A DNA stretch of 64,000 nt from a bacterium (GTDB taxonomy: Bacteria; Patescibacteriota; Minisyncoccia; Minisyncoccales; UBA10102), in assembly GCA_030647485.1 (NCBI GenBank), contig JAUSJT010000004.1, positions 109,088-173,087 of the forward strand. Direction: 5' to 3'. The stretch's first letter is position 1. Each line of letters opens with the position of its first letter. A program made the translations under genes and the position numbers. The notes beneath the pieces are model-generated. The model worked only from the letters and a program-made list of their open reading frames with translations. It was not told where the DNA came from and did not search any database. Shown here piece by piece: positions 8,086 to 59,273 of the stretch.

Positions 8086-8114
8086 TTTACAAATTCTTTT
8101 TCTCAGGGTATAAT
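8086..8114 (+). promoter_or_regulatory. sigma70-type promoter of the atp operon
   Basis: TTTACA-17 nt-TATAAT; 8 nt to the ATG of TATG 8122-8125 (left target copy of the inserted element). Confidence 0.6.
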
Positions 8115-8125
8115 CTCTTTCTATG

Positions 8126-8277
8126 CCCCGTACGAAATTTACACAGGCATAGTCACGCGAAGCGCGAGGGGCGAATAGCCCCATCCTTTCATGGGCGCAG
8201 CGCTTCGCCAATGACAGCATGCACCTATTCGGTGCGCGCACTGCGCAATGTAATAATATGGTAAATTTCTAACGGGG
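8126..8277 (+). mobile_element. 152-bp TIR element, copy A (non-coding relative of the GIY-YIG element)
   Basis: CCCCGTACGAAATTTAC...GTAAATTTCTAACGGGG termini, flanked by TATG on both sides; near-identical to 38754-38905 and 40729-40880. Confidence 0.75.
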
Positions 8278-8278
8278 T

Positions 8279-9022
8279 ATGCATATATCGCTACGGCCAG
8301 AAATTATTGGAACACTCTTTGGCATTCCCATTACCAACAGCTTGATTCTTTCTCTTATAACCGCTTTTCTTCTTGTTGGAGGCGGTTTTTTGCTTGCGCG
8401 TTCTTTGCGGATGATCCCAGGAAAAGCGCAAAATGCCATTGAAACGCTCCTGGAAGGAATCCTCGCCTTCATGGGCCAGACATTAGGGAATAAAGAGCAA
8501 GCGAAGAAATTCTTTCCTCTTGTAGCCACCATATTCTTGTTTATCCTGTTTAATAATTGGATCGGGGTGCTTCCTGGAACCGGGTCTCTGGGATTTTTTG
8601 AAGAAAACCAAGGAGTAAGAACATTTGTTCCTTTGTTTCGTTCTGCGAACAGCGATCTCAATACCACGTTTGCCCTAGCTTTAATCTCCATGGCCGCCAT
8701 TCAGTGGTATGGAATACGAAAGCTGGGGTTCTTGCGCCATATCTCCAAGTTTCTCGTGTTCACCAAGGGCCCGATTGATTTCTTCGTGGGGATATTGGAG
8801 TTGATAGGAGAGTTCGCAAAGATTCTGTCATTCTCGTTTAGGCTATTTGGCAACATATTCGCAGGAGAGGTGCTCCTCATTATTATCATGGCCTTAGTGC
8901 CGGTCATAGTGCCCCTTCCTTTTATCATGCTGGAATTCTTTGTAGGCTTTATTCAGGCCTTGGTTTTTGCTATGCTTACGTTGATATTCTTGAAAATAGC
9001 AACAGCTGAGGTCGAGCATTAG
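8279..9022 (+). CDS. atpB: F0F1 ATP synthase subunit a
   Basis: 247 aa polytopic; ...FSFRLFGNIFAGEVLL... signature. Confidence 0.9.
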   Translation: MHISLRPEIIGTLFGIPITNSLILSLITAFLLVGGGFLLARSLRMIPGKAQNAIETLLEGILAFMGQTLGNKEQAKKFFPLVATIFLFILFNNWIGVLPGTGSLGFFEENQGVRTFVPLFRSANSDLNTTFALALISMAAIQWYGIRKLGFLRHISKFLVFTKGPIDFFVGILELIGEFAKILSFSFRLFGNIFAGEVLLIIIMALVPVIVPLPFIMLEFFVGFIQALVFAMLTLIFLKIATAEVEH

Positions 9023-9033
9023 TATTAAAGGTC

Positions 9034-9290
<257 letters not shown>

Positions 9291-9307
9291 CGCGCCTACG
9301 CATACCG

Positions 9308-9817
9308 ATGACGGAGTTATTCGAAAACCTGGGTGTTGACTGGAAACTCTTGTTTGCGCAGGCAGTGAATTTTCTCTTAGTGTTGTGGCTGCTGAATCGC
9401 TTTGTATTCAGAAAGCTCCTTTCATTGCTGGAAGAGCGTAAAAAGAAGATTGAACAGGGATTGGAGCTGCGAGACCGAGCGGAAAAAGAGGTTGCGCAAA
9501 TTGGAAACGCACGCCATCGTGCATTACAAGAGGTAAAGAAAGAAGCAGAAATCGTGCTGTCTCAAACAAGGGATTTGGCTCGACAAAAAGAGCAAGAATT
9601 ATTAAAAGCCGCTAAAGAACAGCAAGAAACCATACTTTTGAATGCTCGTGCCCAGGGAGAAAAAGACAAGGAAGATATGCTACGGGAAGCGCAGCAGGAG
9701 ATACGCATGAGAGCTTTGTTCTTAGCGGAGCAGGCGTTAGGGAGAACGCTTACCCCTAAAGACGAAGAGAGAATAGCAAAAGAAGTAGTGCAGGCGTTGA
9801 AGAACTATGCAAAGTAA
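9308..9817 (+). CDS. atpF: F0F1 ATP synthase subunit b
   Basis: 169 aa; one N-terminal TM followed by a long charged coiled-coil; operon position. Confidence 0.85.
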   Translation: MTELFENLGVDWKLLFAQAVNFLLVLWLLNRFVFRKLLSLLEERKKKIEQGLELRDRAEKEVAQIGNARHRALQEVKKEAEIVLSQTRDLARQKEQELLKAAKEQQETILLNARAQGEKDKEDMLREAQQEIRMRALFLAEQALGRTLTPKDEERIAKEVVQALKNYAK

Positions 9818-10202
9818 AGTACGAATATACGCAAAGGTATTATATGAAGTCCTGAAGGGAGTTTCTTTAAGCGAGCAGAAAAAAAGGATTCATGCATTAT
9901 ATGGTATCTTAAAAAAGAGGGGAGATATAAAGATAAGCAACGGCATTTTGCAGGAATTTCAACGGTTAGAGAAAGAACAGAAGGGAAAAATAGGGAAAGC
10001 GGTTTCTGCACGGCGTCTGTCCTCATCTGTCAAAGCAACGCTTGTTTCAAAGTTAAAATCCATGAAGTTTGTATTGCAAGATCGAATTGATCCTAGTGTT
10101 ATAGGCGGAGTTGCACTGTTTTTAGGAAATGATTTTTTAATTGATAACACCATCCTTGCAAGATTGAGAAAACTATCCTATGGAAAAAGATTATCTTTTT
10201 GA
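9807..10202 (+). CDS. atpH: F0F1 ATP synthase subunit delta (OSCP), short form
   Basis: 131 aa; C-terminal [31 protein letters not shown] signature; operon position. Confidence 0.75.
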
Positions 10203-12622: not shown

Positions 12623-14117
<1,495 letters not shown>

Positions 14118-27245: not shown

Positions 27246-28025
27246 ATGAATAATGGAAGAAGGCATCCACAAGTGGTAAAAATAAGGGCACGTGAGTTGC
27301 GTAAAAATGGGTATACGCACAGAGAGATTGCAAAAACATTAGGAATCAGTAAGGGTTCTGCGCATTTATGGGCTACAGGCATTGTTTTAACATTTCATCA
27401 AAAAGAAGCGGTTGAACGAAGAAAGAATCAGCATGTTTACACTGAACAGGAGAAACAGGTGCTTCGGGAAAATCTCCGTAAAAACGTATGGCCACGCAAC
27501 ATCAAATATACAAGAGACTCATTGCTCCAGCTTATTCGAACTTTCTATAAAAAGAATGGAAGAATACCCCTGAAGAGAGAATTTAATATGTGGGGTGAGT
27601 ATAGAAGGCATTTTCAAGGATGGAACGATGCCATTAAAACAGCAGGATTTGAGCCGAATCAAGCCATTTTCTCAAAGAGGTGTTATGCGTGTGATGGTCA
27701 TATCTGCGATTCTTTTGTGGAAAAGATTTTGGATGATTGGCTTTCTTCGAAAAAGGTTCTCCATGAGAAAAATGCTCCATACGTTGGGACAAAAATGACA
27801 GCGGATTTTGCGATTGGCAACCTGCGTATTGAATATTTTGGTCTTGCAAAAGAAATGGACGGGTATGACGAGGCAATCAAAAAGAAAAGAACCCTATGTA
27901 GAAAGGAAGGGCTCAGACTTTTAGAAATATATCCCAAAGACCTTTTTTCCTCGTCGAGGGGATTCAAAAAATGTCTTGGTCAAATCCTACGAGCAGTAAG
28001 AGGCGGAACCTTATCTTTTACCTAA
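27246..28025 (+). CDS. HTH + homing-endonuclease-associated-repeat-like + nuclease-like C-terminal domain protein
   Basis: 259 aa; N-terminal RELRKNGYTHREIAKTLGISKGSAHLW (HTH); ...GRIPLKREFNMWGEYRRHFQGWNDAIKTAGFEPN; C-terminal DSFVEKILDDWL...ADFAIGNLRIEYFG resembles a restriction-endonuclease fold. Confidence 0.5.
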   Translation: MNNGRRHPQVVKIRARELRKNGYTHREIAKTLGISKGSAHLWATGIVLTFHQKEAVERRKNQHVYTEQEKQVLRENLRKNVWPRNIKYTRDSLLQLIRTFYKKNGRIPLKREFNMWGEYRRHFQGWNDAIKTAGFEPNQAIFSKRCYACDGHICDSFVEKILDDWLSSKKVLHEKNAPYVGTKMTADFAIGNLRIEYFGLAKEMDGYDEAIKKKRTLCRKEGLRLLEIYPKDLFSSSRGFKKCLGQILRAVRGGTLSFT

Positions 28026-29859: not shown

Positions 29860-30180
29860 GGTATGCTCGGCAACAAACCACGAAAGTACCGAGCCTCAAA
29901 ATCCCTGCGAGATTTTGGGCTCTGCGTTCTCAACTCGCTATCCTCGTTTTACTCGGAACCATGCTAGCGAGTTTCCGAAAGCTACTTTCATGATTTATTG
30001 CCTCGCATTCTCAAACGCGAAGATTCTGCAGTAAGGTTTTTCACGAGCTTTCGCAGGTCTGTCAGCATGGTCCCCGAGTGTATCGAGGGGTGACAGACCG
30101 AGAAGGCAACCCGCAAACATTCGCTGGAATGTTTGACGAGGTGGTCGTAGAAAACCTTACTACAGAATCTTATTGAACAT
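29860..30180 (+). other. unusually long, GC-richer, highly structured rpsG-fusA spacer (candidate cis-regulatory RNA or embedded ncRNA)
   Basis: 19-bp long-range helix 30022-30040/30151-30169 enclosing hairpins 30056-30099 and 30114-30135; competing helices 29865-29894 versus 29891-29922. Confidence 0.45.
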
Positions 30181-34145: not shown

Positions 34146-34193
34146 TGTAACTTAGCTTAGTTAAGTTATCCACACCTTAGTGAGATTAAGGAG

Positions 34194-34229
34194 CCAAAGA
34201 ACCGCCACGGAGGCGGTTTTTGGTATAGT
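34194..34229 (+). repeat. 36-bp direct repeat, left copy (contains the rpsJ terminator hairpin)
   Basis: CCAAAGAACCGCCACGGAGGCGGTTTTTGGTATAGT; 34/36 identical to 35330-35365; AACCGCC...GGCGGTT + T-run. Confidence 0.8.
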
Positions 34230-34295: not shown

Positions 34296-35015
34296 ATGAA
34301 CGGAAAACTTTTAAATATAAGGGAAGCTACCAAATTTCTTGGAGTTTCCGTTGATACGCTTAGACGCTGGGATAAAAGCGGCAAGTTAGTTGCGGTTAGA
34401 AAACCTGGGGGAACCCATCGCTATTACGCAATAAAGGATTTGGAGATGTTTTCCAGTGACTTGATAAAGCTTGCGAATGAGTGGGCGCTTTCTGGAAAAG
34501 AAATATCGCCGGATTTATATTGCTCCAATAGCGCGGTTTTCCAGACAAAATTGATGAGAATGCAAGATGAGATGCTTGTCCTCGGAAAGGAGCGGGGGTT
34601 GGTTTCACTTATGGGCGCCGTTGCAGGAGAAATCGGCAATAACTCGTATGATCACAACTTGGGAAATTGGCCAGATGTGCCCGGAGTGTTTTTTGGTTAT
34701 GATATTCAAAAGGGCACAATCGTACTTGCTGACAGGGGATTAGGTATTTTAAAAACTTTGAGCAGGGTGAAACCTTCGCTCATCTCTCATGAGGAAGCTG
34801 TTAGAGCGGCATTTACTGAAACAATCTCGGGGCGCGCGCCAGAGAAACGGGGTAACGGTTTGAAGTTTGTTCGCAAGATTATTGCTCAAAATCCCATTAG
34901 TCTGTCTTTCCAGACTGGGGACGTGGAATTGCAAATAGAAAAAGAGAGCGGTGATCTGCGCATTGTAAAAACAAAAGACAAAATCCAGGGATGTCTTGCA
35001 ATAATCAAATTCTAA
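34296..35015 (+). CDS. excisionase/MerR-type HTH fused to a GHKL (RsbW/SpoIIAB-like) ATPase/kinase domain
   Basis: 239 aa; N-terminal LLNIREATKFLGVSVDTLRRWDKSGKLVAVRKPGGTHRYY; N-box EIGNNSYDH, G1 LADRGLGI, G2 RGNGLKFV. Confidence 0.65.
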   Translation: MNGKLLNIREATKFLGVSVDTLRRWDKSGKLVAVRKPGGTHRYYAIKDLEMFSSDLIKLANEWALSGKEISPDLYCSNSAVFQTKLMRMQDEMLVLGKERGLVSLMGAVAGEIGNNSYDHNLGNWPDVPGVFFGYDIQKGTIVLADRGLGILKTLSRVKPSLISHEEAVRAAFTETISGRAPEKRGNGLKFVRKIIAQNPISLSFQTGDVELQIEKESGDLRIVKTKDKIQGCLAIIKF

Positions 35016-35025
35016 CTACGATTCT

Positions 35026-35286
35026 ATGATCATCAAACTTAGTAAATTTGGGACTACTCTCGTATCCAGACAAGCCGGGCGGGAAGCTTGGGCTGCTTTT
35101 CAACCAGCCCTGCAATCCGTTGGCCTTAAAGAAAACATTGAAGTTAGTTTTGATGAAGTTTTGACTCTTTCTCCTTCTTGGGCAGACGAGTTTATTACGT
35201 TGCTCAAAAAAGAGTATGGCAGCCGAGTTGTTTTACGCGCAAGCGGTAATCCTTCTGTGAAAGCAACGTTGGATATCCTTGAGTGA
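35026..35286 (+). CDS. STAS-like small protein (DUF4325-type)
   Basis: 86 aa; ...LVSRQAGREAW...IEVSFDEVLTLSPSWADEFI... pattern as I recall it for the DUF4325 STAS-like family; 10 nt after the GHKL gene. Confidence 0.5.
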   Translation: MIIKLSKFGTTLVSRQAGREAWAAFQPALQSVGLKENIEVSFDEVLTLSPSWADEFITLLKKEYGSRVVLRASGNPSVKATLDILE

Positions 35287-35329
35287 AAATAGGGTTAGTC
35301 TTATTCATGCCTTGGCGAGACCCAAGAAT

Positions 35330-35365
35330 CCAAAGAACCGCCACGGAGGCGGTTTTGGGTAGAGT
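35330..35365 (+). repeat. 36-bp direct repeat, right copy (terminator hairpin)
   Basis: CCAAAGAACCGCCACGGAGGCGGTTTTGGGTAGAGT; weaker similarity extends about 25 bp upstream in both copies. Confidence 0.8.
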
Positions 35366-38348: not shown

Positions 38349-38747
38349 ATGACACGTTCACTTAAAAAAGGCCCATTTATTGACGAGAATCTTTTAAAGA
38401 AGATTCAAGGAACAAAACCCTTAGGGAAAGCCCCGGTAAATACCTGGTCTCGAAGGGCGACCATCACCCCTGAAATGGTGGGGTTTACCTTTGGAGTATA
38501 CAATGGAAAACAATTTATTCCAGTGCTGGTGGCAGAAGATATGGTGGGGCATAAGCTAGGAGAATTTTCTCCTACCACAAAGTTTGTACGGCATGGAGGA
38601 AGAATGCAGAAAGACATAGAACAGGGAGCAACAGCAGCTGCGGCTCCAGGAGCCGTTAGCGCACCCGCCTCCGCTGGACCTGCCCGTCCGGCAGGCGGGG
38701 CTACGGCGGGCAAGGCAGGGAAAACAGAGAAACCAACAGCGAAATAG
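38349..38747 (+). CDS. rpsS: 30S ribosomal protein S19 with about 40-aa Ala/Gly/Pro-rich C-terminal extension
   Basis: [12 protein letters not shown]...[25 protein letters not shown]...; tail ...[36 protein letters not shown]. Confidence 0.95.
38664..38714 (+). repeat. 51-nt GC-rich palindromic segment inside the rpsS tail (in frame)
   Basis: CCCGCCTCCGCTG + 23 nt (CCTGCC...GGCAGG) + GCTACGGCGGGCAAG; flanking 13-mer and 15-mer identical to atpD 12824-12853. Confidence 0.6.
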
Positions 38748-38753
38748 CCTATG

Positions 38754-38905
38754 CCCCGTATGAAATTTACAAAGGTCTATACACGCGAAGCGCGAGGGGC
38801 GAATAGCCCCATCCTTTCATGGGCGCAGCGCTTCGCCAATGACAGCATGCACCTATTCGGTGCGCGCGCTGCGCTTTATAATAATATGGTAAATTTCTAA
38901 CGGGG
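38754..38905 (+). mobile_element. 152-bp TIR element, copy B (rpsS-rplV junction)
   Basis: Flanked by TATG 38750-38753 and 38906-38909; termini CCCCGTATGAAATTTAC / GTAAATTTCTAACGGGG. Confidence 0.75.
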
Positions 38906-38906
38906 T

Positions 38907-39419
38907 ATGCAAACATTGATGAGGTTACAACGAATACGAATTGCGCCCAGAAAGATGAGAATGGTTATTGATCTGGTGCGAGGAAAGAAAGTTGCTCTTG
39001 CAAGGGATGTGTTGCGTTTTAAGACAAACAAGGGAGCTAGGATTCTTTCAAAGCTTCTAGACTCTGCGATTGCGACAGCCAAGTCATTGGGACAGGGAGA
39101 CGAGTCAAATCTTATGGTATTGAAAATAGCAGTGGACGAGGGTCCAAAGTTAAAACGCTGGAGAGCTCGGGCTAAAGGATCAGCCTATGAAATCCAAAAG
39201 AAAGTTTCTCACATTACGCTTATCTTAGACGAGGTGAAGGGTGCAAAATCCGCATCAGTATCCAGGAAAGAGATAAAAACAGGACAAGAAGCTGTGAAGA
39301 AAGATCAAGTTGCGATAAAGACAGAAAAGCCTAAGTTTAAGGCTGTATCTAGCGAGCTCAAGACTTCAAGGACTGAAAAAGGAGTTCAGAGATTCTTTAG
39401 GAAATCAGGAGAAAAGTAG
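38907..39419 (+). CDS. rplV: 50S ribosomal protein L22 with Lys-rich C-terminal extension
   Basis: 170 aa; ...RIAPRKMRMVIDLVRGKKVALARDVLRF..., ...RWRARAKGSAYEIQKKVSHITLIL. Confidence 0.93.
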   Translation: MQTLMRLQRIRIAPRKMRMVIDLVRGKKVALARDVLRFKTNKGARILSKLLDSAIATAKSLGQGDESNLMVLKIAVDEGPKLKRWRARAKGSAYEIQKKVSHITLILDEVKGAKSASVSRKEIKTGQEAVKKDQVAIKTEKPKFKAVSSELKTSRTEKGVQRFFRKSGEK

Positions 39420-40558: not shown

Positions 40559-40738
40559 ATGAACATCGCTGAACTGCGGCAAAAATCAAAAGGGGAGTTG
40601 CAGGAGTTCCTTCAAGGGCAGAAAGAAACACTGCGTCAACTTAGGTTTGATCTTGCTGCGGGAAAAGTAAAAAACGTGCGTCAGATAAGACAATTGAAAA
40701 AAACAATAGCACAAATACTAACCGTATGCCCCGTATGA
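40559..40738 (+). CDS. rpmC: 50S ribosomal protein L29 (stop codon supplied by the inserted element)
   Basis: 59 aa MNIAELRQKSKGELQEFLQGQKETLRQLRFDLAAGKVKNVRQIRQLKKTIAQILTVCPV*; below the ORF-track cutoff. Confidence 0.88.
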   Translation: MNIAELRQKSKGELQEFLQGQKETLRQLRFDLAAGKVKNVRQIRQLKKTIAQILTVCPV

Positions 40739-40880
40739 AATTTACAAAGGTCTATACACGCGAAGCGCGAGTGGCGAATAGCCACATCCATACAGGGGCG
40801 CAGCGCTTCGCCAATGACAGTATGCACCTATTCGGTGCGCGCACTGCGCTATGTAATAATATGGTAAATTTCTAACGGGG
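40729..40880 (+). mobile_element. 152-bp TIR element, copy C (rpmC-rpsQ junction)
   Basis: Flanked by TATG 40725-40728 and 40881-40884; carries the compensatory GTGGC...GCCAC variant of the GGGGC...GCCCC hairpin. Confidence 0.75.
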
Positions 40881-40881
40881 T

Positions 40882-41115
40882 ATGCCCAAAAAACAATTAA
40901 CTGGCATTGTGGTGTCAGACAAAATGCAAAAGACCATTGTGGTAGAGGTTGAACAATGGCATGTGAACTCAAAGTACAAGAGGAGATTTCGCATGCACAA
41001 AAAGTACAAAGCCCATGATGAGAAAGGAGAATACAAAATAGGAGACACGGTTGTTATTGAGGAATCAGTCCCTATTTCAAAAGATAAGAAGTGGAGAGTT
41101 ATTTCCAAGGCGTAA
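40882..41115 (+). CDS. rpsQ: 30S ribosomal protein S17
   Basis: 77 aa; ...LTGIVVSDKMQKTIVVEVE...HKKYKAHDE...GDTVVIEESVPISK. Confidence 0.95.
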   Translation: MPKKQLTGIVVSDKMQKTIVVEVEQWHVNSKYKRRFRMHKKYKAHDEKGEYKIGDTVVIEESVPISKDKKWRVISKA

Positions 41116-52734: not shown

Positions 52735-53811
52735 ATGCTGCTTGTTGATTTTGGAGAAAGCACCTGCAAGTTCGCTCTTGTGAAAGAATATGAAAAGAGC
52801 CTCGAGGTGCAAGAATGGGGGATAGAGGATATCCGCTCTTTAGAGTATGCAGCAGAGCATATCCTTGAGAGGATGAAAGGCGTGCATGGAGATATGGAGC
52901 CCGTCTTTGTAAGCTTGCCCGCCACCCTATGGAGATCGCGTGTATTGTATGAGGGAATAGAGAGGAAGAACGCGGCCTTGCGCATTGACTCTGCAGAAAA
53001 AGAAACCATCCTCGAAGGTCTTTTTGCGAGGACGCGCTCATCGCTCAAGGAACAGGTGCAAGATTCCTCTGGAATCCTCGCAGAGGACGTAAGTATCCAA
53101 AAGTTGCAGATCCTTAAGTACACGATTGATGGATACCATGTGCAAGACATTTTGGGCTTTCCGGGAACACACCTGGATGTTCAGATTATGGCAGTGTTTG
53201 CTCTTGTAAAGCATCTCCCTATCGTGGATAATATAATACAGAGGTTCTCTAGTATCTCTTCCCCCCGTATTGTTCATCTTGCAGAAGCCCTTGAGGGCTT
53301 TTCTCAAACGAGACCGCAGGACGCAATATACATTGATATGGGGGATGCATTCACCCGGATTATCGCGACGCAGCAAAAACGTGTTGCATTCGTTGACGAA
53401 GTTTCTCGCGGAGGCAGGGATTTCACGCTCTATCTTCAAGAGACCCTTTCTCTGGGAGAGAATACTGCAAAAGATTTTAAAGAACGGTATGCCTCAGGCG
53501 ACTTCTCGTTTCCCTTGAGGGAAGCGGTAAAGGAAGGATTCCTAGCCATAGCAGAAGATCTTGCACGTCTTGTATGTAAGAGTTTGCGCAGTACCAGGGT
53601 ATCTCTTCCTTCTTCTATTTTCCTTTTTGGAGAAGCCAGCAAGCTTCCAGAAATTGAAAAAGCCTTTCTAGGCAACATCTTTGAAGGATTGCCATTCCAC
53701 GAGAAGCCCCGCATCTCGTTCTTGCTGCCAAAGGATCTCTGGACCTTGGAGTTCCCCGGCAAAACAAATCCCGTCTTCACTCCATTATTTTTCTTGCCTT
53801 ATGCCCCGTAA
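52735..53811 (+). CDS. divergent FtsA/PilM-like actin-fold ATPase (stop codon supplied by the GIY-YIG element TIR)
   Basis: 358 aa; phosphate-1-like LLVDFGESTCKF, phosphate-2-like IYIDMGDAFTRI, SRGGRDFT, IFLFGEASKLPEI. Confidence 0.5.
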   Translation: MLLVDFGESTCKFALVKEYEKSLEVQEWGIEDIRSLEYAAEHILERMKGVHGDMEPVFVSLPATLWRSRVLYEGIERKNAALRIDSAEKETILEGLFARTRSSLKEQVQDSSGILAEDVSIQKLQILKYTIDGYHVQDILGFPGTHLDVQIMAVFALVKHLPIVDNIIQRFSSISSPRIVHLAEALEGFSQTRPQDAIYIDMGDAFTRIIATQQKRVAFVDEVSRGGRDFTLYLQETLSLGENTAKDFKERYASGDFSFPLREAVKEGFLAIAEDLARLVCKSLRSTRVSLPSSIFLFGEASKLPEIEKAFLGNIFEGLPFHEKPRISFLLPKDLWTLEFPGKTNPVFTPLFFLPYAP

Positions 53812-54088
53812 CATTACATCGGTAGTGTTCTTCTACGTCTATGTACTTTTGAGTTTGAAAGATGGAAACCATTATGTAGGATATACTACTGACTTGAGAA
53901 AGAGAATAGAAGAACACAAGAAGGGGCTGGTGTTCTCGACAAAAACACGAAGGCCCCTCACACTTATCTATTTTGAGGGTTGTCGAAATGAACAAGATGC
54001 TAAACAGCGCGAGCGATACCTCAAGATGACTATTGGTCGCAGATGGCTTGGCACAAGATTGAGGAATTTTAATAAAAAACTGATGTAA
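53801..54088 (+). CDS. stand-alone GIY-YIG nuclease-domain protein (95 aa)
   Basis: MPRNITSVVFFYVYVLLSLKDGNHYVGYTTDLRKRIEEHKKG...ERYLK; ATG is the left TATG copy and TAA lies inside the right TIR; the ORF-track start at 53681 is an extension into the upstream gene. Confidence 0.8.
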   Translation: MPRNITSVVFFYVYVLLSLKDGNHYVGYTTDLRKRIEEHKKGLVFSTKTRRPLTLIYFEGCRNEQDAKQRERYLKMTIGRRWLGTRLRNFNKKLM

Positions 54089-54098
54089 TGTTACGGGG
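53804..54098 (+). mobile_element. 295-bp GIY-YIG element with perfect 17-bp TIRs and TATG target duplication
   Basis: CCCCGTAACATTACATC (53804-53820) / GATGTAATGTTACGGGG (54082-54098); TATG at 53800-53803 and 54099-54102. Confidence 0.7.
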
Positions 54099-54099
54099 T

Positions 54100-55356
54100 A
54101 TGCAAAAAAAGAAAGTTCGTGATATTCTTCCTCCCAGGCGTGTCAAGGCGCACGAGCCTGAAAAAGCAACTCCATCTTCTCTCGTGCAGCGTTCCCCACA
54201 AAGAACCCCTAGGAGAATGCTGTTTTTTCTACTCTTTGTCGTGCTCATAGGAGGAATTACAGGGGTGCTTAGCCTCCACTTCTTTTTTGCCAAGGTCTGG
54301 ATTATCGTCCACCCGTACACAAGAGAGGTAACTGCCAAAGCGTCTATGACTGCCCGTGCAGGAATTGAGGGAACAGATATTGAAAAGAGTATCTCCGCAT
54401 TGATTATTAATGAAGAGAAGTCATTGACCAGACTATTTCCTGCGACAGGGATATCTACCGAGGAAGGAAGAGCTCGGGGCACCATACGGGTATTCAACGG
54501 ATTCTCCACGTTTCCTCAAAAATTAGTCGCGCAGACACGATTTCTTTCAGAAGACGGGAAGCTATTCCGTTCTCCAGGAGCCGTGGTGGTACCCGCAGGG
54601 CGTATGGAAGGAGGTAGCATTATTGCGGGATTCCTTGATATTGAGGTTGTAGCCGCAGAATCCAAAGAGGAATACAATATTGGACCTTCTAATTTTTCCC
54701 TTCCTGGACTCTTTGGGAATCCCGCATATACGACCATAACTGGAAAATCATCTGAACCTATGACTGGCGGGTCAAAAACGGAAGTTTCCGTTGTAACAGA
54801 ATCTGATTTGAATGCTGCACGGGATGCTCTTATGGCAGAGTTGCAGCAAGACGTGCGAGAATCCCTGGAGGGCAAGGTGCCAGAGGGTATGATATTGCTT
54901 TCTGACGCAGTAGACCTCCGGGTTGTTCAGGCGTCTTCACCTATCAAGGCAGCAGCTCCGTTAGACAATTTTAATTTCTCTGTGAAAGTCCAGGGAGTAG
55001 CCATAGTTTTTTCCAAGGCCGATGTTGAGAACGCAGCCAAAACGCTTCTTGCCAACCTTACAGAAGGGGGAGAAAAAATAGCCGAACGGGCCGATTCAAT
55101 AGAGTACGAAAACGTGGAAATGAATATGAGCGCCCAGAGCCTTTCTTTTGACATGAGAGCGTCCACGAGGACCTACAAAGAGATTGACCCTGTTGAATTC
55201 AAGGCGCGCTTAGCGGGGATATCAAAGGATGAGGCGGCTTTAGCGCTTTCCTTAAATCCCAGCCTGCAAAAAGCAGAGATTCTTTTATTTCCCTTCTGGC
55301 TTACATATCTCCCCCAAGACCCCAATAAGGTGGAGGTTAGCATAGTTATTGACTAG
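54100..55356 (+). CDS. hypothetical membrane-anchored protein
   Basis: ATG of the right TATG copy (MQKKKVRD...); one N-terminal TM ([20 protein letters not shown]); no family recognised. Confidence 0.6.
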
Positions 55357-59208: not shown

Positions 59209-59273
59209 AGAGGGGGTCGGGGAGATTGGGTATCTCCCCGTGTAGGAAATTATTCAAAACCGAGGGTTTTGAA
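59209..59273 (+). repeat. structured repeat family 2, copy 4 (permuted: 3' half precedes 5' half)
   Basis: AGAGGGGGTCGGGGA + gattgggtatc + TCCCCGTGTAGGAAATTATTCAAAACCGAGGGTTTTGAA. Confidence 0.65.

Follow-up and report, generated by a model that had tools for sequence, protein, structure and literature searches.

Why should a short repeat that sits exactly on the start codons of ribosomal protein genes carry a reading frame running through it from end to end? The question is raised by the window analysed here (the whole stretch of DNA under study, 64,000 nucleotides long), a genome stretch of CPR (Patescibacteria) type with an atp operon and the rpsL-to-rpsI ribosomal protein operons. Within it, a 160-nt repeat, both flanking TATGs included, is present three times (copies A, B and C; Table 1). 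An earlier note on this DNA had proposed that the frame is open only in the copies lying inside operons, where it would be kept as a relay that hands ribosomes from the upstream cistron on to the host start codon.

Anatomy of the three copies

All three copies share the layout TATG, CCCCGTA(T/C)GAAATTTAC ... GTAAATTTCTAACGGGG, TATG, in which the right ATG is the host start codon (rplV at 38907 for copy B, rpsQ at 40882 for copy C). TATG flanks the repeat on both sides in 3/3 cases, and the 17-nt terminal arms (CCCCGTATGAAATTTAC and GTAAATTTCTAACGGGG) have two mismatches. The rpsS stop codon (TAG, 38745-38747) lies just ahead of copy B, with the left ATG 3 nt downstream, and the rpmC frame terminates inside copy C (TGA, 40736-40738). 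From the left ATG of copies B and C a frame of 49 codons spans the element and ends as TTC TAA CGGGGT ATG, the last triplet being that of the host. In copy A the corresponding frame holds one TAG, which is codon 10 (8150-8152), and is open for the rest. Copies B and C are 94% identical and differ at 9 nt, with 7 of the differences changing the amino acid. The earlier note had described the two 49-codon frames stopping 6 nt before the host ATG, the early closure of copy A and the B/C differences in the same terms, and our coordinates and ORFs agree with it on each.

Table 1. Coordinates of the repeat copies, the GIY-YIG element and associated features in the window
Feature	Position	Strand	Remarks
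sigma-70-like promoter match TTTACA-17-TATAAT	8086..8114	+	consensus match only, 11/12 positions
copy A, foldback element	8122..8281	+	in front of atpB (ATG 8279)
copy B, foldback element	38750..38909	+	between rpsS and rplV; TATG, CCCCGTATGAAATTTAC ... GTAAATTTCTAACGGGG, TATG
copy B frame, 49 codons	38751..38900	+	ATG start; TAA 38898-38900, 6 nt before rplV ATG
copy C, foldback element	40725..40884	+	between rpmC and rpsQ
copy C frame, 49 codons	40726..40875	+	ATG start; TAA 6 nt before rpsQ ATG
GIY-YIG element	53800..54102	+	TATG, CCCCGTAACATTACATC ... GATGTAATGTTACGGGG, TATG; host ATG 54100
GIY-YIG ORF, 95 aa, whole interior	53801-54088	+	TAA 54086-54088 in right inverted repeat

In front of copy A, the promoter match ends 8 nt upstream of the left ATG, which would place the original atpB start at or very near the transcript 5′ end. 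That start was probably leaderless, and copy A appears to be promoter-proximal.

The S19 protein encoded upstream of copy B has an Ala/Pro/Gly-rich C-terminal tail of ~35 aa (38640-38747), and L22, encoded downstream, has a Lys-rich C-terminal extension of ~60 aa (39230-39419); each is unusual for the protein concerned. Between rpsJ and rplC, a 42-nt direct repeat (34188-34229 and 35324-35365, 90% identical) with a terminator-like hairpin (CCGCCACGGAGGCGGTTTTT) brackets a 1.1-kb insert that encodes a MerR-type HTH protein (34296-35015) and a DUF4325/STAS-like protein (35026-35286) and looks like a cassette inserted within the S10 operon.

A superfamily of foldback elements on start codons

The 150-nt repeat is a MITE, a foldback transposable element of the non-autonomous kind: it is short, has no transposase gene, is bounded by terminal inverted repeats and a target duplication, and occurs in many dispersed copies. 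The 49-aa ORF is its only ORF and has no Pfam match. Searches of Rfam returned nothing relevant for the whole window at the gathering threshold, nor for the element at E values up to 10. Elements of this kind form a superfamily, TATG/CCCCGT...ACGGGG/TATG, that is found across the CPR and is inserted on start codons.

A scan for the fixed ends only (TATGCCCCGT, a gap of 125-155 nt, ACGGGGTATG) matched 111 stretches in one-genome-per-species contigs and at least 120 further stretches in metagenomes, giving at least 231 loci for the superfamily. Nearly all genome-scan matches that bear an organism name are Patescibacteria MAGs. Among the matches listed, 188 elements were retained after duplicates and chance matches had been dropped, and it is to these listed elements that the counts below refer. 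Their extreme ends are constant, and their stems of ~20 nt vary between subfamilies yet remain complementary, that is, they covary (for example AATACAAC.../...GTTGATAT, AGAGAAATTTTG.../...ATTCTTCT and ATGGCAAC...). In 166 of the 188, a host ORF starts at the right ATG and either extends for 60 codons or more or is cut by the end of the contig, and just one element (L056) appears inverted relative to its host gene. C is found at the two positions 3′ of the right TATG in 39% and 43% of cases, in DNA that is AT-rich, which makes TATGCC the preferred target.

Target-site duplication is confirmed by comparison with an empty site: relative to an uninterrupted rpmC/rpsQ junction (L078, TCTATGCCCAAAAAAC), the filled one (L190) has gained the insertion and a duplicated TATG. 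Recent activity is indicated by tandem copies with a shared TATG (L004 and L136). Exact-protein look-ups for strain-level empty sites of copies B and C gave none for S17 and, for L22, only a contig broken at the repeats. A short-read Logan contig from another dataset (SRR13727527; L112) encodes identical L22, S3 and L16 proteins; it starts 25 nt upstream of rplV and stops at the next element, so that assemblies evidently break on the repeat at copies B and C. At one orthologous site in different genomes (L185/L202) the flanks are 81-84% identical and the elements 97%; at another (L194/L198) the elements are only 62% identical. These patterns suggest that one start codon was hit repeatedly or that gene conversion took place.

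The window's own subfamily (ATGAA) has a single further member, a fourth copy found in L234 at 91% identity. Directly upstream of it, and divergently transcribed, lies a gene for a 223-aa Y1_Tnp protein (IS200/RAYT-like; 9180-9945) with REP-like hairpins of its own (CCAACTTACACCCCGGGGGTGTTAAGTTGG and CCACTTTACACCCCCGGGGTGTAAAGTGG). A link to RAYT/REP systems suggested by this neighbour was rejected, as the gene has its own distinct flanking hairpins. REP/REPIN sequences, which RAYT (a Y1 transposase) mobilises, are defined by an associated Y1_Tnp gene and the lack of a target duplication, and elements of the window family do carry such a duplication.

Other repeats occur in the window. A second foldback (30020-30171) lies between rpsG and fusA and ends ~10 nt before the fusA ATG (ATGCCACGA); its arms, of 27 nt and with 89% complementarity, are separated by 98 nt, and it does not have the ends of the CCCCGT family. 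A 38-nt repeat (CCCCGTGTAGGAAATTATTCAAAACCGAGGGTTTTGAA) is found in identical form upstream of atpD (12655-12692) and downstream of rpsI (59236-59273), both times adjoining a GAGGGGGTCGGGG motif. It begins like the CCCCGTAGGAAAT subfamily and may be a related or partial element.

A GIY-YIG element with the same architecture

The window also holds a longer element whose whole interior is a GIY-YIG ORF (Table 1) matching PF01541 (E = 1e-15). It was located via its inverted repeat, having been missed by a regular-expression motif search over ORFs. The frame opens at the left ATG and closes in the right repeat at a TAA that precedes the host ATG by 11 nt; the likeness in layout to copies B and C, which the earlier note had pointed out, is upheld. 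In sequence, this element and copies A-C have only TATGCCCCGTA...TTACGGGGTATG in common, and copies A-C encode no GIY-YIG domain.

A closer connection between the two forms is seen elsewhere in the superfamily. The 316-bp element of L136 is along its entire length a 100-aa GIY-YIG ORF (MPRNTTSS...) that runs from the captured ATG to the TGA of GTTGATAT. It has ~30 nt on the left and ~45 nt on the right in common with the MITEs L043, L074 and L089, which use the same inverted-repeat stop, and their interiors are unrelated to its own. Homologues of the window GIY-YIG protein typically start with MPSNTTSS or MPRNTTSS and end with FG(S/T/A)G(S/R), which indicates that the inverted repeats are translated as the N and C termini of the protein; the MPSNTT N-termini imply that the ends also exist as CCCAGT/ACTGGG variants. 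On sequence grounds, then, the window repeat appears to be a foldback, MITE-like offshoot of a family that targets start codons and is associated with GIY-YIG genes. The best explanation for the frame architecture of the family, which opens at a captured ATG and closes in the right repeat 6-11 nt ahead of the host ATG, is descent from the ~300-bp GIY-YIG relatives.

The idea that the MITE interior is an in-frame deletion relic of the GIY-YIG gene was rejected, the alignment of L043 with L136 matching at the ends only. Interior peptides compared by blastp with 120 GIY-YIG proteins scored no better than a reversed-sequence control, so the interiors are not simply such relics. A scan of a viral collection for 300-bp elements gave one unrelated match.

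In the AATAC subfamily (e.g. L011, L043 and L136) a conserved subterminal hairpin, CAAACGnn-loop-nnCGTTTG, lies immediately interior to the right repeat. It is common to the MITEs and the full-length GIY-YIG element and may be a recognition structure. A 259-aa ORF elsewhere in the window (27246-28025) combines an HTH domain with a homing-endonuclease-associated repeat (PF18780, E = 5e-11) and could be a further selfish gene.

Open frames in the window are compatible with chance

Being 94% identical, copies B and C count as one lineage and one observation. When element interiors were shuffled, the left-ATG frame came out open in 24-26% of trials (P ~0.25). The interior of the subfamily of copies A-C has 55-58% GC vs 35% for the superfamily, and a second forward frame is also nearly open. 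The open frame in the window's own copies is thus compatible with chance and, taken alone, weak evidence; three copies are insufficient to carry the inference of a relay.

Figures of this kind are also what a by-product of nucleotide or structural constraint would give. Openness would then follow from few stop codons and recent common ancestry in a GC-rich subfamily whose conserved multi-hairpin interior matters as DNA or RNA and has no translational role. The element is predicted to fold into a stem with several internal hairpins (~-70 kcal/mol, z = -4.5), with the left AUG and the host AUG both within its base. Alignment columns 37-126, the core, hardly vary among A, B, C and the L234 copy, and the one double change in them is compensatory (GC to UA). 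Aligned with its own reverse complement, the element as a whole is 71% identical; with the GC content, the shuffles and two of three forward frames nearly open, these observations favour the by-product account.

The inverted repeats argue the other way. Left and right repeats of the window copies are unequal: the left reads CGT ATG where the counterpart would read CGT TAG, and the right retains an in-frame TAA. The asymmetry falls exactly where, were the repeats perfect, the left arm would acquire a TAG and the right arm would lose its TAA. The L234 copy argues similarly. Its target duplication differs (TGAA or ATGAAT), so that the host ATG sets a different element frame; this frame is open too, with its TGA overlapping the regenerated host ATG (ATGA overlap). 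AT-rich sister subfamilies, moreover, stay open against strong odds, as set out below. We hold the by-product account, one of the two main rivals, to be less likely than a relay.

Selection for openness in a sister subfamily

Of the 188 listed elements, 43 have a left-ATG frame that stays open from end to end, vs 14.7 expected from shuffles, and five control frames gave 6-24. The remaining 145 are closed, including 74 that adjoin an upstream ORF. The excess is confined to certain subfamilies. In AATAC/ACTAC (67 listed elements) the right-repeat TGA ends 10 nt before the host ATG: when the element length puts this TGA in frame, 28/33 are open vs 3.5 expected (the other two forward frames of the same 33 are open in 1 and 0), and in the other length phases 2/34 vs 3.6 expected. 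We de-replicated the subfamily by drawing one random representative per sequence cluster at thresholds of 65-90% identity (single-linkage at 60% merged almost everything). At the cluster level 8.9/17 were open vs 2.1 expected (P = 4e-4), 14/27 vs 3.2 (P = 4e-7) and 19.4/34 vs 3.9 (P = 5e-10). Intact copies are 146, 149, 152, 155, 158 or 161 nt long, in steps that are multiples of 3.

The AATAC frames are selected for translatability and not for the peptide (see below), and the evidence is strong in this sister subfamily. For the window's own subfamily the evidence of such selection is weak. In the AGAGA subfamily 0/31 listed copies are open, and in TAGAA the frame is stopped by a TAG at codon 4; both facts count against a relay, as does the single lineage of B and C with its shuffle openness of ~25%. 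Open copies recur before rplV (copy B of the window, L011 and L224), rpsS, rpsP, rplR, rplQ and nusG.

Position and age of the copies

The earlier note had held that the frame is open only in operon-internal copies. We took as operon-internal those elements for which a same-strand ORF of at least 60 codons ends between positions -45 and +15 relative to the left ATG. Open frames occur in 29/103 listed copies beside an upstream ORF vs 10/76 others, and equal rates of interruption, the outcome that would have told against the proposal, were not seen in the survey (Table 2). With one representative per cluster the odds ratio is 3.4-4.2 and p ranges from 0.02 to 0.2.

Table 2. Open and closed left-ATG frames in operon-internal and other copies
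Elements	Open, internal/other	Closed, internal/other	OR	p
all 188 listed elements	29/10	74/66	2.6	0.018
subfamilies with right-repeat stop	28/8	19/21	3.9	0.009
AATAC only	20/6	19/15	2.6	0.11
all, tighter definition (stop within 16 nt)	21/18	54/86	1.9	0.10

Exceptions run in both directions. At least eight open copies sit 60-190 nt from any upstream ORF, and the L234 copy, located behind a TATAAT box and a divergently transcribed gene and hence promoter-proximal, is open; conversely, the closed copies include the 74 with an upstream ORF mentioned above. The operon-internal preference of open frames is therefore only a trend: a tendency survives from the original claim, the word "only" does not, and significance is lost over part of the range upon de-replication.

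Open and closed copies might instead differ merely in age. Under such a birth-and-decay history, frames would be intact at birth, having been made from source copies modelled on the GIY-YIG gene, and would then decay neutrally locus by locus, so that openness would reflect neither position nor benefit to the host. The AATAC copies do form a decay series, with 28 intact, 25 one lesion away (22 by a single frameshift, 3 by a single stop) and 13 with more lesions, from which it follows that the frame is often lost while the insertion persists. In closed copies, the frame leading to the terminal TGA has stayed open, and the positional association, as just described, loses significance upon de-replication. 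Yet intact frames persist across clusters whose interiors are less than 65-70% identical, where neutral decay should approach the 10% shuffle level, and intact lengths from 146 to 161 differ by multiples of 3; both indicate that openness is still selected in the source lineages. The direction of the positional trend, too, is stable on de-replication. We hold neutral decay, the other main rival, to be unlikely.

The peptide is not conserved

A functional small protein of 49 aa is so improbable as to be essentially excluded, and was rejected: the ORF has an ATG and sits where translation would occur, but pN/pS comes to 1.09 when B and C are compared and to 1.03 for related intact open pairs elsewhere, peptides of different open copies have only the residues from the inverted repeats in common (interior peptides differ between clusters), no Pfam family is matched, and the lone 50-aa homologue in the protein collection (P0121) is the same DNA element called from another start codon, in L234. 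The absence of purifying selection on the product, expected from the earlier note, is borne out by these values, and the conservation as a protein that it had named as contrary evidence was not found.

A proposed ribosome relay at SD-less starts

No Shine-Dalgarno (SD)-like motif at functional spacing was found at 33 gene starts of the window (0/33; e.g. 36522, 37157, 37560, 38349 and 41497), among them the three behind the element and those of tuf, the atp genes and the r-protein genes. Eight r-protein genes begin 2-4 nt after the preceding stop (e.g. TAA CCT ATG). With no SD motifs and such short spacers, stop-restart coupling looks native inside these operons, which makes a relay through the element plausible. 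The r-protein starts that closely follow a stop often have T at -1.

Insertion takes place at TATG, preferably TATGCC, on a start codon, and duplicates the TATG. The left ATG then keeps the native initiation context of the host gene, which in copies B and C is the stop of the upstream cistron (TAG CCT ATG in copy B), and the true host ATG is displaced by ~156 nt to the 3′ base of a strong hairpin. For what follows we propose that ribosomes leaving rpsS or rpmC would most likely restart at the left ATG of copy B or C, translate through the element frame, unwinding the hairpin as they go, terminate at the TAA and restart at the host ATG, by which the SD-free stop-restart coupling native to the operon would be re-created. 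Two features expected of coupling are present in copies B and C, namely a stop near the downstream start (TAA-CGGGGT-ATG) and a downstream start with no ribosome-binding signal of its own. As the in-frame TAA stands two codons before the host ATG, host proteins keep their normal N-termini. We infer that the element frame is translated and that its translation benefits the host gene.

Copy A speaks against such a relay, its frame being closed even though its host start looks leaderless; the logic of the relay does not exempt it, since the near-leaderless atpB start is now displaced too. The proposal of the earlier note that the frame is kept open as a ribosome relay accordingly stands in part: selection in the sister subfamily supports it and the mechanism is coherent, but the window copies alone do not bear it. 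Our preferred reading is that the relay frame was inherited from the GIY-YIG architecture and is useful but dispensable, and that it is not restricted to operon-internal sites; we put its probability at about 0.45.

Relation to known systems

The closest known analogues are prokaryotic MITEs and Rickettsia palindromic elements. Like the MITEs and foldback repeats that are transcribed along with operons (Correia, ERIC, RUP and BOX), the elements described here are short, non-autonomous and dispersed, have inverted repeats and a target duplication, and form a long hairpin within mRNAs. Unlike them, they insert precisely on start codons (TATG, preferably TATGCC), combine constant ends with stems that covary between subfamilies, and have a partner that encodes only a GIY-YIG domain of 95-100 aa and no known transposase; some subfamilies, besides, keep an element-spanning frame.

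Coupling by termination and reinitiation, with opening of structure, is known from the MS2 coat to replicase junction and from overlapping stop-start junctions in r-protein operons. Here likewise, an upstream frame ends a few nt before an SD-less start buried in structure, and its translation would expose and feed that start. The difference is that the upstream frame comes from a mobile element and has no coding function, and that the case is known from sequence alone. Free-standing GIY-YIG homing endonuclease genes (I-TevI and the Seg proteins) resemble the longer form of the family in having a GIY-YIG catalytic domain in a small selfish insert between host genes. Unlike these, the window protein consists of the catalytic domain only (53801-54088), with no second, DNA-binding domain in its 95 aa; its insert is bounded by inverted repeats and a target duplication, its ends recur at numerous unrelated sites, and derivatives in the form of non-coding MITEs belong to the family.

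Rickettsia palindromic elements (RPEs; Ogata et al. 2000), as summarised in PMC10969869, are inserted in-frame inside genes and translated within the host protein, with a conserved peptide. They share with our elements a palindromic nature, a size of ~150 bp, an open frame and being tolerated in or at protein-coding genes. Unlike an RPE, the window element is not inserted in-frame in a host CDS: its frame ends ahead of the host ATG and leaves the host protein as it was, and the peptide is unconserved (pN/pS ~1).

Implications for CPR genomes

Full-text literature searches found no description of GIY-YIG elements with inverted repeats, nor of start-codon MITEs in the CPR. A minimal GIY-YIG protein in inverted-repeat elements with a target duplication may point to a mechanism of mobility likewise not met in those searches. 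A broader reading, which we put forward tentatively and would not bet on, is that Patescibacteria carry undescribed ultra-compact elements homing to start codons, with a 300-bp autonomous form that is a single GIY-YIG ORF and 150-bp non-coding derivatives that act as pure ribosome relays. The GIY-YIG form would borrow the start codon of the host together with its context and return the ribosomes via the right-repeat stop; the derivatives would be selected for translatability with the peptide unconstrained, preserving stop-restart coupling in SD-less genomes.

In practice, so abundant a repeat family breaks short-read assemblies, as with the L112 contig that ends at B/C, and seeds spurious small-ORF calls in CPR genomes. 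If the relay is true, the family would offer a clean natural case of a reading frame selected for being translated and not for its product, and a selfish element could occupy the start codons of essential genes under tight coupling while costing the host little. The relay would also bear on translation initiation in CPR bacteria, where the genes looked at here have no SD motifs.
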